From a virus (taxonomy: Duplodnaviria > Heunggongvirae > Uroviricota > Caudoviricetes): DNA of 8,805 nucleotides. Both the position numbers and the translations under genes were made by a program. Of the stretch, positions 500 through 8,805 are shown piece by piece. The notes below the pieces were generated by a model that was not told the DNA's origin, ran no database searches, and saw nothing but the letters and a program-made list of their open reading frames with translations. Every line of letters starts with the position of its first letter. Within the stretch, counting starts at the first letter, position 1. The stretch lies in the IMG/VR virus record IMGVR_UViG_2684622618_000007; one strand, given 5' to 3'.

Positions 500-828
500 T
501 TAAGTAAACCTGTCTGAACAGGTTCTCTGGTCGTGTTTGTCTTTGTTGGGTACAAATTGAGAATATTTTTCATTAATTAATCTTCTTCTGCAGGCTTCAA
601 TAACCCACGCTGAAAAATTTCCTGAACCTTTCAGATCAAGAGCGATGTTAATTTGTTCAATCATCTGGTTTGGAAATCGGATGTTGCGGGTTGTTGTNNN
701 NNNNNNNNNNNNNNNNNNNNNNNNNNNNNNNNNNNNNNNNNNNNNNNGATGTTAATTTGTTCAATCATCTGGTTTGGAAATCGGATGTTGCGGGTTGTTG
801 TTCTGCGGGTTCTGTTCTTTGATGACAT
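500..828 (-). CDS. Small basic protein, YlcI/DUF3950-like, putative ribbon-helix-helix DNA-binding protein; reading frame interrupted in this assembly by a gap and duplication
   Basis: Minus strand: ATG at 828-826 gives MSSKNRTRRTTTRNIRFPNQ; 664 down to stop TAA (complement of 500-502) gives MIEQINIALDLKGSGNFSAWVIEACRRRLINEKYSQFVPNKDKHDQRTCSDRFT. The two parts join into one about 74-aa ORF if the duplicated 54 bp and the 50 N are collapsed. Matches my memory of E. coli prophage YlcI-family proteins (not verifiable here). Confidence 0.55.
644..697. repeat. 54-bp direct duplicate, copy 1 (abuts gap)
   Basis: Identical to 748-801; ends exactly at the N run. Confidence 0.9.
698..747. other. Assembly gap (50 N)
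   Basis: Run of exactly 50 N. Confidence 0.97.
748..801. repeat. 54-bp direct duplicate, copy 2 (abuts gap)
   Basis: Identical to 644-697; begins exactly after the N run, consistent with unmerged overlapping contig ends. Confidence 0.9.
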
Positions 829-1027
829 AATGTTGCCCCATATTCAGTGTTGCTGATTTGTATTATCTGAAGTTGCTTTTACGTTAATTTGATGCAGATC
901 AATTAATACGATACCTGCGTCATAATTGATTATTTGACGTGGTTTGATGGCGTAGATGCACGTTGTGACATGTAGATGATAATTATTATCATTTTGCGGG
1001 TCCTTTCCGGCGATCCGACCGGTTACG

Positions 1028-1039
1028 GGGCGGCGACCT
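1028..1039 (+). other. cosN: cosN: 12-nt cohesive-end sequence GGGCGGCGACCT (terminase nicking site)
   Basis: Exact lambda cohesive-end 12-mer, preceded by GGTTACG (lambda right-end terminus) and followed by CGCGGGTTTTCGCTATTTATGAAAATTTTCCGG (lambda left-end start), as recalled. Confidence 0.85.
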
Positions 1040-1076
1040 CGCGGGTTTTCGCTATTTATGAAAATTTTCCGGGGAA

Positions 1077-1090
1077 AATCATGTCGGTAC
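1077..1090 (+). repeat. R3-like element (AATCATGTCGGTAC)
   Basis: 11/14 match to the repeat core. Confidence 0.5.
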
Positions 1091-1135
1091 TTCTCGAACA
1101 TAACTATTTGTTTTTTCTAATATCGAATCCGTAAA

Positions 1136-1149
1136 GGTCCGACATGAAA
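1136..1149 (-). repeat. R2-like element, inverted (reverse complement TTTCATGTCGGACC)
   Basis: 14/14 match to the R1-like copy, opposite orientation. Confidence 0.55.
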
Positions 1150-1176
1150 ACGCCTGAAAAAGTCATTTTCGGGCAC

Positions 1177-1190
1177 TTTCATGTCGGACC
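1177..1190 (+). repeat. R1-like element (TTTCATGTCGGACC)
   Basis: Exact copy of the repeat core, 25 nt upstream of the Nu1 start. Confidence 0.55.
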
Positions 1191-1214
1191 CTGTATTTGT
1201 TGTGAGACTGTTTC

Positions 1215-1734
1215 ATGAAGGTTAATAAAAAGAAACTTGCCGAAATTTTCAACGTGGATCCGCGAACGATTGAACGCTGGCAGTCTCAGGGGCTCCCTTG
1301 CGTCTCCGGAGGTGGTAAGGGCGTTGAATCTGTATTTGATACCGCCACGGCAATTCAGTGGTATGCGCAGAGGGAAGCTGATATCGAAAATGAAAAACTC
1401 CGTAAAGAGGTTGAGGATTACAGGGCTGCCAGCGAGGCAGATCTCCAGCCTGGGACTATTGAGTACGAATGCCATCGACTTACGCGTGCGCAGGCTGACG
1501 CCCAGGAGCTGAAGAATGCCAGAGACTCCGCAGAAGTGGTGGAAACCGCATTCTGTACTTTCGTGCTGTCACGGATCGCAGGTGAAATTGCCAGTATTCT
1601 TGACGGGATCCCTCTCTCAGTACAGCGGCGTTTTCCGGAACTGGAAAACCGACATGTTGATTTCCTGAAACGGGATATTATCAAAGCCATGAACAAAGCA
1701 GCCGCGCTGGATGAACTGATACCGGGGTTGCTGA

Positions 1735-1760
<26 letters not shown>
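1215..1760 (+). CDS. nu1: Terminase small subunit (Nu1 family); divergent N-terminal winged-HTH domain, lambda-like C-terminal domain
   Basis: 181-aa ORF. C-terminal two thirds ([14 protein letters not shown]...LSEYIEQSG) match lambda Nu1 as recalled; the N-terminal 70 aa differ from lambda but retain an HTH and the GGGKG motif (nt 1308-1322). Overlaps the A start by 26 nt. Confidence 0.92.
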
Positions 1761-5441
<3,681 letters not shown>

Positions 5442-5461
<20 letters not shown>

Positions 5462-6761
5462 TCTCCCGCATATTGCCAGCATGGCTTTTAATGAGCCGCT
5501 GATGCTTGAACCCGCCTATGCGCGGGTTTTCTTTTGTGCGCTTGCAGGCCAGCTTGGGATCAGCCGCCTGACGGATGCAGTATCCGGCGACAGCCTGACT
5601 GCCGGAGAGGCACCCGCGGCGCTGGCGTTATCCGGTGATGATGACGGACCACGACAGGCCCGGAGTTATCAGGTCATGAACGGCATCGCCGTGCTGCCGG
5701 TGTCCGGTACGCTGGTCAGCCGGACGCGGGCGCTGCAGCCGTATTCGGGAATGACCGGTTACAACGGCATTATCGCCCGTCTGCAACAGGCTGCCAGCGA
5801 TCCGATGGTGGACGGCATTCTGCTCGATATGGACACACCGGGCGGGATGGTGGCGGGAGCATTTGACTGTGCTGACATCATCGCCCGTGTGCGAGACATA
5901 AAACCGGTATGGGCGCTGGCCAACGACATGAACTGCAGTGCAGGTCAGCTGCTTGCCAGCGCCGCCTCCCGGCGTCTGGTCACGCAGACCGCCCGGACAG
6001 GCTCCATCGGCGTCATGATGGCTCACAGTAATTACGGTGCTGCCCTGGAGAAACAGGGCGTGGAAATCACGCTGATTTACAGCGGCAGCCATAAGGTGGA
6101 TGGCAACCCCTACAGCCATCTACCGGGTGATGTCCGGGAAACACTGCAGTCCCGGATGGATGCAACCCGCCGGATGTTTGCGCAGAAGGTGTCGGCATAT
6201 ACCGGCCTGTCCGTGCAGGCTGTGCTGGATACCGAGGCTGCAGTGTACAGCGGTCAGGAGGCCATTGATGCCGGACTGGCTGATGAACTTGTCAACAGCA
6301 CCGATGCGATCACCGTTATGCGTGATGCACTGGATGCACGTAAATCCCGTCTCTCAGGAGGGCGAATGACCAAAGAGACTCAATCAACAACTGTTTCAGC
6401 CACTGCTTCGCAGGCTGACGTTACTGGCGTGGTGCCAGCGACGGAGGGCGAAAACGCCAGCGCGGCGCAGCCGGACGTGAACGCGCAGATCACCGCTGCG
6501 GTTGCGGCAGAAAACAGCCGCATTATGGGGATCCTCAACTGTGAGGAGGCTCACGGACGCGAAGAACAGGCCCGCGTGCTGGCAGAAACCCCCGGTATGA
6601 CCGTGGAAACGGCCCGCCGCATTCTGGCCGCAGCACCACAGAGTGCACAGGCGCGCAGTGATACTGCGCTGGATCGTCTGATGCAGGGGGCACCGGCACC
6701 GCTGGCTGCAGGTAACCCGGCATCTGATGCCGTTAACGATTTGCTGAACACACCAGTGTAA
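5442..6761 (+). CDS. C: Prohead protease/scaffold gpC (S49/ClpP-like serine protease family)
   Basis: GTG start at 5442 preceded by GGAGGAG (5431-5437); product begins (V/M)TAELRNLPHIASMAFNEPLML as in lambda gpC; 439 codons; overlaps the B 3' end by 20 nt. The ORF-track start at 5307 is a non-initiating in-frame extension. Confidence 0.9.
6156..6761 (+). CDS. nu3: Scaffolding protein Nu3, translated in frame from an internal start within C
   Basis: In-frame ATG at 6156 (MDATRRMFAQKV...) at the position corresponding to lambda Nu3, sharing the stop codon of C. Assigned by homology of arrangement, not independent sequence evidence. Confidence 0.7.
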   Translation: MDATRRMFAQKVSAYTGLSVQAVLDTEAAVYSGQEAIDAGLADELVNSTDAITVMRDALDARKSRLSGGRMTKETQSTTVSATASQADVTGVVPATEGENASAAQPDVNAQITAAVAAENSRIMGILNCEEAHGREEQARVLAETPGMTVETARRILAAAPQSAQARSDTALDRLMQGAPAPLAAGNPASDAVNDLLNTPV

Positions 6762-6770
6762 GGGATGTTT

Positions 6771-7103
6771 ATGACGAGCAAAGAAACCTTTACCCATTAC
6801 CAGCCGCTGGGCAACAGTGACCCGGCTCATACCGCAACCGCGCCCGGCGGATTGAGTGCGAAAGCGCCTGCAATGACCCCGCTGATGCTGGACACCTCCA
6901 GCCGTAAGCTGGTTGCGTGGGATGGCACCACCGACGGTGCTGCCGTTGGCATTCTTGCGGTTGCTGCTGACCAGACCAGCACCACGCTGACGTTCTACAA
7001 GTCCGGCACGTTCCGTTATGAGGATGTGCTCTGGCCGGAGGCTGCCAGCGACGAGACGAAAAAACGGACCGCGTTTGCCGGAACGGCAATCAGCATCGTT
7101 TAA
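6771..7103 (+). CDS. D: Head decoration protein gpD
   Basis: 110-aa product [27 protein letters not shown]... matching lambda gpD as recalled; AGGGA Shine-Dalgarno 6 nt upstream of ATG 6771. Confidence 0.95.
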
Positions 7104-7120
7104 CCTGACCCTTCATCACT

Positions 7121-7146
7121 AAAGGCCGCCTGTGCGGCTTTTTTTA
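7121..7146 (+). terminator. Terminator-like GC hairpin followed by T-run in the D-E intergenic region
   Basis: GCCGC (7125-7129), loop CTGT, GCGGC (7134-7138), then T8 (7139-7145). Confidence 0.4.
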
Positions 7147-7158
7147 CGGGATTTTTTT

Positions 7159-8184
7159 ATGTCGATGTACACAACCGCCCAACTGCTGGCGGCAAATGAG
7201 CAGAAATTTAAGTTTGATCCGCTGTTTCTGCGTCTCTTTTTCCGTGAGAGCTATCCCTTCACCACGGAGAAAGTCTATCTCTCACAAATTCCGGGACTGG
7301 TAAACATGGCGCTGTACGTTTCGCCGATTGTTTCTGGTGAGGTTATCCGTTCCCGTGGCGGCTCCACCTCTGAATTTACGCCGGGATATGTCAAGCCGAA
7401 GCATGAAGTGAATCCGCAGATGACCCTGCGTCGCCTGCCGGATGAAGATCCGCAGAATCTGGCGGACCCGGCTTACCGCCGCCGTCGCATCATCATGCAG
7501 AACATGCGTGACGAAGAGCTGGCCATTGCTCAGGTCGAAGAGATGCAGGCAGTTTCTGCCGTGCTCAAGGGCAAATACACCATGACCGGTGAAGCCTTCG
7601 ATCCGGTTGAGGTGGATATGGGCCGCAGTGCGGCGAACAACATCACGCAGTCCGGCGGCACGGAGTGGAGCAAGCGTGACAAGTCCACGTATGACCCGAC
7701 CGACGATATCGAAGCCTACGCGCTGAACGCCAGCGGCGTGGTGAATATCATCGTGTTTGACCCGAAAGGCTGGGCGCTGTTCCGTTCCTTCAAAGCCGTC
7801 AGGGAGAAGCTGGATACCCGTCGCGGCTCTCATTCCGAACTGGAGACAGCGGTAAAAGACCTGGGCAAAGCGGTGTCTTATAAGGGAATGTATGGCGATG
7901 TGGCCATCGTCGTGTATTCCGGACAGTACGTGGAAAACGGCGTCAAAAAGAACTTCCTGCCGGACAACACGATGGTGCTGGGGAACACTCAGGCACGCGG
8001 TCTGCGCACCTATGGCTGCATTCAGGATGCGGACGCACAGCGCGAAGGCATTAACGCCTCTGCCCGTTACCCGAAAAACTGGGTGACCACCGGCGATCCG
8101 GCGCGTGAGTTCACCATGATTCAGTCAGCACCGCTGATGCTGCTGGCTGACCCTGATGAGTTCGTGTCCGTACAACTGGCGTAA
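7159..8184 (+). CDS. E: Major capsid protein gpE (HK97-fold)
   Basis: 341-aa product MSMYTTAQLLAANEQKFKFDPLFLRLFFRESYPF... matching lambda gpE as recalled; the upstream in-frame extension from 7132 in the ORF track is not the start. Confidence 0.95.
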   Translation: MSMYTTAQLLAANEQKFKFDPLFLRLFFRESYPFTTEKVYLSQIPGLVNMALYVSPIVSGEVIRSRGGSTSEFTPGYVKPKHEVNPQMTLRRLPDEDPQNLADPAYRRRRIIMQNMRDEELAIAQVEEMQAVSAVLKGKYTMTGEAFDPVEVDMGRSAANNITQSGGTEWSKRDKSTYDPTDDIEAYALNASGVVNIIVFDPKGWALFRSFKAVREKLDTRRGSHSELETAVKDLGKAVSYKGMYGDVAIVVYSGQYVENGVKKNFLPDNTMVLGNTQARGLRTYGCIQDADAQREGINASARYPKNWVTTGDPAREFTMIQSAPLMLLADPDEFVSVQLA

Positions 8185-8186
8185 TC

Positions 8187-8213
8187 ATGGCCCTTCGGGG
8201 CCATTGTTTTTCT
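8187..8213 (+). terminator. Perfect 7-bp stem hairpin with TTCG loop followed by T-rich tract, immediately after E stop
   Basis: ATGGCCC (8187-8193), TTCG, GGGCCAT (8198-8204), then TGTTTTTCT. Confidence 0.4.
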
Positions 8214-8225
8214 GTGGAGGAGTCC

Positions 8226-8624
8226 ATGACGAAAGATGAACTGATTGCCCGTCTCCGCTCGCTGGGTGAACAACTGAACCGTGATGTCAGCCTGACGGGG
8301 ACGAAAGAAGAACTGGCGCTCCGTGTGGCAGAGCTGGAAGAGGAGCTTGATGACACGGATGAAACTGCCGGTCAGGACACCCCTCTCAGCCGGGAAAATG
8401 TGCTGACCGGACATGAAAATGAGGTGGGATCAGCGCAGCCGGATACCGTGATTCTGGATACGTCTGAACTGGTCACGGTCGTGGCACTGGTGAAGCTGCA
8501 TACTGATGCACTTCACGTCACGCGGGATGAACCTGTGGCATTTGTGCTGCCGGGAACGGCGTTTCGTGTCTCTGCCGGTGTGGCAGCCGAAATGACAGAG
8601 CGCGGCCTGGCCAGAATGCAATAA
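8226..8624 (+). CDS. FI: DNA packaging accessory protein FI
   Basis: 132-aa product MTKDELIARLRSLGEQLNRDVSLTGTKEELALRVAELEEELDD... matching lambda gpFI as recalled; GGAGG at 8216-8220. Confidence 0.92.
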   Translation: MTKDELIARLRSLGEQLNRDVSLTGTKEELALRVAELEEELDDTDETAGQDTPLSRENVLTGHENEVGSAQPDTVILDTSELVTVVALVKLHTDALHVTRDEPVAFVLPGTAFRVSAGVAAEMTERGLARMQ

Positions 8625-8635
8625 CGGGAGGCGCT

Positions 8636-8805
8636 GTGGCTGATTTCGATAACCTGTTCGATGCTGCCATTGCCCGCGCCGATGAAACGATACGCGGGTA
8701 CATGGGAACGTCAGCCACCATGACATCCGGTGAGCGGTCCGGCGCAGTAATACGTGGTGTTTTTGATGACCCTGAAAATATCAGCTATGCCGGACAGGGC
8801 GTGCG
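8636..8805 (+). CDS. FII: Head-tail connector FII, 5' partial (runs off window)
   Basis: GTG start at 8636 preceded by GGGAGG (8626-8631); product (V/M)ADFDNLFDAAIARADETIRGYMGTSA... matches lambda gpFII N-terminus as recalled. Confidence 0.85.
   Translation, partial: MADFDNLFDAAIARADETIRGYMGTSATMTSGERSGAVIRGVFDDPENISYAGQGV

Follow-up and report, generated by a model that had tools for sequence, protein, structure and literature searches.

A lambda-type late region in prophage Sp11 with a phage 21-type block spanning cosB and the N-terminal domain of the small terminase subunit

The packaging specificities of phages lambda and 21 are mutually exclusive (>1000-fold), and genetics has assigned the discrimination between them to base pairs 56 and 59 of the R3 box together with residues 20 and 24 of the small terminase subunit, TerS (PMC4669245). 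In the domain map of TerS the oligomerisation region is central and the domain that binds the large subunit, TerL, is C-terminal; the wing has been proposed to contact the minor groove, and the specificity of TerL binding was mapped to the C-terminal half by a lambda-21 hybrid with a chimeric TerS (PMC9026076). The closest described system is the hybrid lambda-21 hy51, which combines cosB-21 and the 5′ half of gene 1 with the 3′ half of Nu1 (PMC4669245; PMC9026076). This hybrid, which goes back to Frackman, Siegele and Feiss (1985; cited through PMC4669245 and PMC9026076), is viable and has been used as a helper specific for 21 (PMC4669245). The locus that we describe here is a natural copy of the hy51 architecture. 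As the natural counterpart of a well-studied laboratory hybrid it is ordinary: an example of established biology, not a system of a new kind.

The window, by which we mean the whole stretch of 8,805 nucleotides that was analysed, comes from a draft scaffold and is a copy of Sp11, a 'lambda-like phage' prophage of E. coli O157:H7 Sakai. Over positions 748-8805 it is 99.5% identical to Sakai and 96.0% identical to lambda, the latter figure counting in the divergent block described below. The list of open reading frames and Pfam scans reveal a lambda-type late region, consisting of Nu1 (1215-1760, plus strand, 181 aa), A (1735-3660, plus strand; Pfam GpA_ATPase and GpA_nuclease) and, downstream of gene A, W, B, C/Nu3, D, E and FI. 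Gene A encodes the lambda-type large terminase subunit gpA, the partner of the Nu1 C-terminus; its DNA is ∼98% identical to lambda over 1761-2400, and the first 50 gpA residues are lambda-identical over 1735-1830. Reading frames that overlap Nu1, including one on the minus strand at 1179-1475, were taken as by-products, because the plus-strand frame gives the full-length Nu1 match. No RNA family was returned when the entire window was scanned against Rfam at gathering thresholds.

Upstream of the packaging site are a PerC-family gene starting at 354 (Pfam) and a minus-strand DUF3950 (ylcI-like) gene at 500-828 (ORF list and Pfam). The PerC-family regulator, which runs from 354-411 into a scaffold gap (L004 8209-8523), is pchB in Sakai, one of PchABC, and is carried as cargo immediately upstream of the packaging site cos, with the lysis genes on its other side. 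The scaffold gaps are two runs of 50 N, at 412-461 and 698-747. The first replaces 300 bp of Sakai sequence, most of pchB included. The second is flanked by a single 54-base duplicate (644-697 equals 748-801), so overlapping contig ends have been joined there but left unmerged, artificially splitting the DUF3950 gene. A further peculiarity lies at the start of gene A. In the patch 1756-1797 the window equals lambda, while Sakai Sp11 and Escherichia phage IdasGreatGrand (PP925829) share 13 differences in 42 nt; these change the final residue of Nu1 from G to D and also alter residues 8-21 of gpA (against IDILRRDVRAGLRA). Of the mismatches between window and Sakai, 41 of 42 lie within 1756-3174, so that the window's gene A came partly from a lambda-like source other than that of Sakai.

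To locate the joints of the mosaic, we aligned window 900-2400 with lambda (PV340536), phage 21 (M81255) and phage IdasGreatGrand, treating as informative the 521 sites at which lambda and 21 differ and the window equals either. The best partition by two-breakpoint maximum chi-square is 1073-1426 (chi2 348, reached by 0/200 permutations): inside it 114 of 133 informative sites are 21-type, and outside it 371 of 388 are lambda-type. The block so defined is 354 bases long, corresponds to lambda bp 46-399, and holds exactly cosB (R3, I1, R2 and R1) and Nu1 codons 1-71. In 30-nt windows, identity to lambda is 0.83-1.0 to ∼1065, falls to 0.47-0.73 to ∼1425 and then returns to 0.83-1.0, mostly at least 0.93, while identity to phage 21 takes the opposite course. 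The left joint (1071-1073) lies between I2/cosN and R3, the last lambda-type site being 1071 and the first 21-type site 1073. The right joint lies just past the DNA-binding domain, at about codons 64-72. Informative sites at 1405-1426 are mixed, the sequence there being partly unlike both lambda and 21, and from 1430 all are lambda-type; the crossover is therefore somewhere in about 1405-1430, a range that is no finer because this stretch differs from both references.

The protein divides at the same place. Residues 1-71 of Nu1 are 59% identical to lambda (61% in DNA) and 86% identical to phage 21 gp1 (88% in DNA), while residues 72-181 are 98% identical to lambda (95.5% in DNA) and 50% identical to 21 gp1 (58.5% in DNA). 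These figures agree well with the preliminary description of this DNA, which had read Nu1 as a lambda-like body with an exchanged DNA-binding domain at its N-terminus, divergent over the first 70 residues, followed by lambda-like head genes and with a joint near 1425-1440 (the last 21-type site is 1426, the next lambda-type site 1430). The sliding-window comparison with lambda and 21 that it proposed gives sharp, opposite switches at ∼1065 and ∼1425, and uniform identity to lambda across Nu1 was not observed. Its further claim, that domain and cosB were exchanged as a unit, is supported by the contiguity of the 21-type block, in which 21-type cosB, with its R boxes, adjoins the domain with the matching helix; site and reader thus moved as one. 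We consider it very probable that 1073-1426 is a horizontally exchanged packaging-specificity cassette within the lambda-type cos/Nu1/A/head region of Sp11.

Like hy51, the window joins a 21-type cosB and a 21-type 5′ part of the small-subunit gene, with its helix-turn-helix specificity motif, to the 3′ part of lambda Nu1, alongside lambda gpA. However, its block of 354 bp is shorter than the left-end segment of hy51 (∼600 bp), its cosN stays lambda-type, its right joint at about codon 64-72 differs from that of hy51 near mid-gene, and its donor is only 86.8% identical to 21. With phage 21 (gp1 and cosB-21, M81255) it shares an identical recognition helix, the R-box core and the layout R3-I1-R2(inverted)-R1, and 86% protein identity over residues 1-71, but it departs from 21 in the 50% identity of residues 72-181, in having lambda gpA and not 21 gp2 as large subunit, and in a GGGKG wing where 21 has KGSKG. 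With lambda gpNu1 it has in common the fold family (PF07471), an equal length and residues 72-181 (98% identical), and with lambda more generally cosN, gpA and the head genes; it differs in the recognition helix (RTIERWQS against RTIQNWQE) and in the R boxes of cosB (CATGTCGG against CGTTTCC).

The sites of the cos region were placed by transferring the protein-binding annotation of M81255 through the alignment; lambda bp 1, placed by the known left-end sequence of lambda, we take to be window position 1028. The lambda-type cosN region (997-1072, plus strand) includes the R4 box (997-1008), the nicking region, the 12-nt cohesive end GGGCGGCGACCT (1028-1039) and the I2 IHF box (1057-1071), and across cosN, cohesive end and I2 the window equals lambda wherever lambda and 21 differ. 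The R3 box of cosB, AATCATGTCGGTACTT (1077-1092, plus strand), is 21-type and one base different from phage 21 (A for G at 1081); bp 56 (1083) and bp 59 (1086) are both G, the 21 states, where lambda has T and C. The I1 IHF-binding box (1099-1113, plus strand) lies between R3 and R2 and differs from 21 at 2 of 15 bases. R2 (1134-1149, minus strand) is inverted and identical to R2 of phage 21, and R1 (1177-1192, plus strand) has the 21-type core TCATGTCGG. The bases at bp 56 and 59, together with the box order R3-I1-R2(inverted)-R1, give the site the sequence features of the phage-21 class. An initial R-box pattern, TCATGTCGGNC, missed R3, and the 9-mer TCATGTCGG was used instead. The window contains exactly three copies, at 1079(+), 1139(-) and 1179(+), in the order R3(+)/R2(-)/R1(+); the chance expectation is 0.07, and 0/200 shuffles reach three. 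We found no lambda-type CGTTTCC box in cos, and its single copy in the window, at 6605, is at chance level.

The 181-residue open reading frame matches the Pfam family Phage_Nu1 (PF07471) over 164/164 profile positions (299.7 bits, cut-off 30, E 5e-90). It lies directly downstream of cos (997-1192) and overlaps the start of the gpA gene, the arrangement of a lambda-like TerS. Codons 1-71 (1215-1427, plus strand) encode the 21-type winged helix-turn-helix DNA-binding domain, and codons 72-181 (1430-1760, plus strand) the lambda-type oligomerisation and TerL(gpA)-binding part, at 98% protein identity; with lambda-type residues 72-181 beside lambda-type gpA, the TerS-TerL pairing is of lambda type. 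Taking the limits of helix and wing from PMC9026076, the recognition helix RTIERWQS (residues 17-24; 1263-1286, plus strand) is identical to that of 21 gp1, with E20 and S24, whereas the lambda helix has Q20 and E24, so that this element too is of the phage-21 class. The wing (residues 31-39; 1305-1331, plus strand) contains GGGKG (1308-1322, plus strand), the commonest wing state among the aligned relatives and the one found in lambda. In the wing area the window differs from 21 at residues 30, 32, 34 and 37 (V30, G32, G34 and V37), which means that identical specificity with 21 is not guaranteed. Structures of the DNA-binding domain exist for lambda (1J9I, 6HN7) and for phage 21 (7LWR); the 54-residue chain of 7LWR aligns identically with 21 gp1 residues 1-54, and the window is identical at 48 of these 54.

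On two points the preliminary description has to be amended. It had placed GGGKG at 1308-1322 and called it retained; the position is right, and the motif is retained relative to lambda only, not relative to 21. It had also likened the N-terminus to phage 21 and to the NohA/NohD homologues of E. coli, of which the first likeness holds on alignment (86% identity to 21 gp1) and the second does not: K-12 NohD (DLP12) and NohA (Qin) (loci L005 and L010) are lambda-type small subunits over their whole length, with RTIQNWQE and RGGGKG, and within the block the DLP12 locus and the window share only 53-60% identity. The last residues of NohA are replaced at a deletion joint with stfQ. Upstream of cos, DLP12 is 99% identical to window 900-1072.

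Comparison with other members of the family pairs each recognition helix with its own R-box core: RTIERWQS with TGTCGG in the window and in the Enterobacter prophage P0013, RTIQNWQE with GTTTCC in lambda, and RTITTWQS with AGATCC at the P0021 locus. P0013 has TGTCGG in all three boxes despite a quite different cosN. P0021 carries three AGATCC-core boxes in the R3, R2(inverted) and R1 positions, and, compared with the lambda and 21 classes, looks like a further packaging-specificity class. The two loci are found at L012 2290-2580 (Enterobacter sp. contig JBDKEE010000001) and L013 2290-2580.

With 86.8% identity to phage 21 and about 55-60% to lambda over the block, the donor is evidently a relative of phage 21 and not 21 itself. 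A search among sequenced phages for a closer donor turned up only IdasGreatGrand, itself a carrier of this mosaic, and thus no parent free of the recombination. The TerS of IdasGreatGrand is 98% identical in protein, and the block 98.3% identical, to the window; it differs in having other sequence upstream of ∼990, Arg86, Asp instead of Gly as last residue, and the Sakai-type patch at the start of gene A. In a collection of 5,426 genomes, 568 complete E. coli records carry the block at 95% identity or more, as does one isolated phage; in 373 complete records it is at least 99% identical, and a further 806 records have a best match of 80-90%, the level of 21. The Sp11-type cassette occurs once per genome in every O157:H7 genome among the matches listed.

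It is possible, if on balance rather unlikely, that a phage of Sp11 type, already of the 21 class, gained its lambda-type flanks in two events, instead of the block entering by one 354-bp double crossover. The left boundary certainly varies among carriers. IdasGreatGrand, E24377A and elppa6 carry the block at 97-99% identity with different left flanks, departing from the window upstream of ∼1000, and E24377A does so already within cosN, where (L006 1300-2400) the block stands beside another cohesive end, GGGCGGAAGGCG instead of GGGCGGCGACCT. Right-hand joints also differ: in P0115 the block is joined to a third C-terminal type after residue 103, and P0004 has a 21-related (74% identical), non-lambda N-terminus to about residue 103 and is lambda-type beyond. 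Given these variable joints, the crossovers on the two sides are clearly independent, and the conserved stretches IENEKLR (residues 57-63) and residues 72-103 act as recurrent crossover zones. However, no relative was found that combines the Sp11-type block with non-lambda residues 72-103, and it is more economical to assume one double crossover, within conserved stretches of cosN and of residues 57-63/72-103. The best 120 protein homologues have mostly a lambda-type C-terminus, and are uninformative as to how often 21-type C-termini are paired with other N-termini. In E24377A, Nu1 has lost its own C-terminus beyond residue 169; the replacement continues into the remnant of a Lom-family gene and a tail-fibre gene, indicating a deleted prophage; many database 'Nu1' proteins are comparable fusions with Lom, tail or other domains.

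If the cassette behaves as the biology of lambda and 21 predicts, a chimeric TerS dimer would use its recognition helices and wings to read the TCATGTCGG boxes in its own cosB, IHF would bend the DNA at I1, the lambda-type C-terminal half of TerS would hold lambda-type gpA, and gpA would nick the lambda-type cosN, so starting packaging. All interfaces are matched, the DNA-binding domain to cosB and the TerS C-terminus to TerL, and a functional lambda-type terminase of phage-21-class specificity is therefore to be expected. While the recombination can be read from the sequence itself, it is by analogy that we infer this specificity and the activity of the terminase.

There are two ways in which the specificity might differ from that of 21. 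The first, which we regard as speculative and improbable, is that the Sp11-type cassette forms a separate sub-specificity, with a 21-type helix and a lambda-like GGGKG wing, spread by selection for mutually exclusive packaging signals among co-resident lambdoid prophages; were this true, the smallest portable unit of specificity would be the one delimited by the natural joints, at bp 46 and about codon 70. The second, slightly less probable again, is that its specificity is distinct from those of both lambda and 21, owing to the different wing and the R3 variant. V30, G32, G34 and V37 do differ from 21 in or beside the wing, the proposed minor-groove contact (PMC9026076), and R3 is one base off 21. 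Yet the recognition helix and R2 are both identical to 21, R3 bp 56, 58 and 59 are all identical to 21, and the A at 1081 brings R3 into line with the R2/R1 core that 21 itself uses.

Far less probable is co-evolution in situ, in which the N-terminal domain and cosB of a lambda ancestor diverged faster than their surroundings under diversifying selection, with no exchange. Diversifying selection on specificity modules is expected in hosts with several prophages (PMC4669245), but several observations speak against this reading. Among codons that specify the same amino acid, those differing from lambda make up 55% in residues 1-71 and 12% in residues 72-181, and those differing from phage 21 make up 16% and 53%, while the non-coding stretch 1073-1214 switches allegiance at the same left boundary as the block; synonymous codons and non-coding DNA thus shift just as abruptly as the protein. 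Moreover, the block shares 87-88% identity with 21, an independent phage, against only about 55-60% with lambda, its boundaries are sharp within a few bases, and the same block is found in other genomic contexts. We conclude that the block, as its sequence indicates, is the product of recombination, not of selection on the protein. The idea that draft assembly produced the mosaic by joining contigs from two prophages, or that it is a contaminating laboratory lambda-21 hybrid, can be dismissed, despite the two 50-N gaps and the duplicated 54-nt contig end, given that both joints lie within one ungapped contig (748-8805), that 1000-1520 (521 bases, both joints inside) is 100% identical in finished Sakai Sp11, EDL933 and other complete genomes listed and 97.5% identical in an isolated phage genome, and that a block only 86.8% identical to phage 21 is not that of hy51.

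One residue of the lambda-type part deserves mention. Codon 86 of the window's Nu1 is TGC (1470-1472), giving R86C, where every other aligned homologue has Arg86 (lambda, 21, NohA, NohD, IdasGreatGrand, E24377A and other relatives). Cys86 is common to the window and Sakai Sp11, and may therefore be lineage-specific, and possibly impairing, in a prophage that no longer excises. In Sakai the repressor and integrase of Sp11 are disrupted, and its excision, replication and packaging were not seen, while its terminase and morphogenesis genes were judged intact (PMC2669165). Given these defects, selection on the Sp11 terminase may be relaxed.

The sequence has been public since the Sakai genome, annotated as a small terminase subunit, and the work on lambda-21 hybrids had already established the modular organisation; no published description of this natural mosaic in Sp11, nor one of PDB 7LWR, turned up in literature searches. 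What the locus provides is a clean natural case, in lambda-like phages, of a textbook principle: cosB and the N-terminal DNA-binding domain of TerS travel as one unit, which can be separated from the TerL-binding part. Compared with the segment in the laboratory hybrid, the natural block is shorter, and it ends just after the structurally defined DNA-binding domain, which fits both the genetic and the structural domain map. For predictions of which prophages, satellites or cosmids a given helper terminase can package in pathogenic E. coli, the practical consequence is that Sp11-type prophages should be counted in the phage-21 class.
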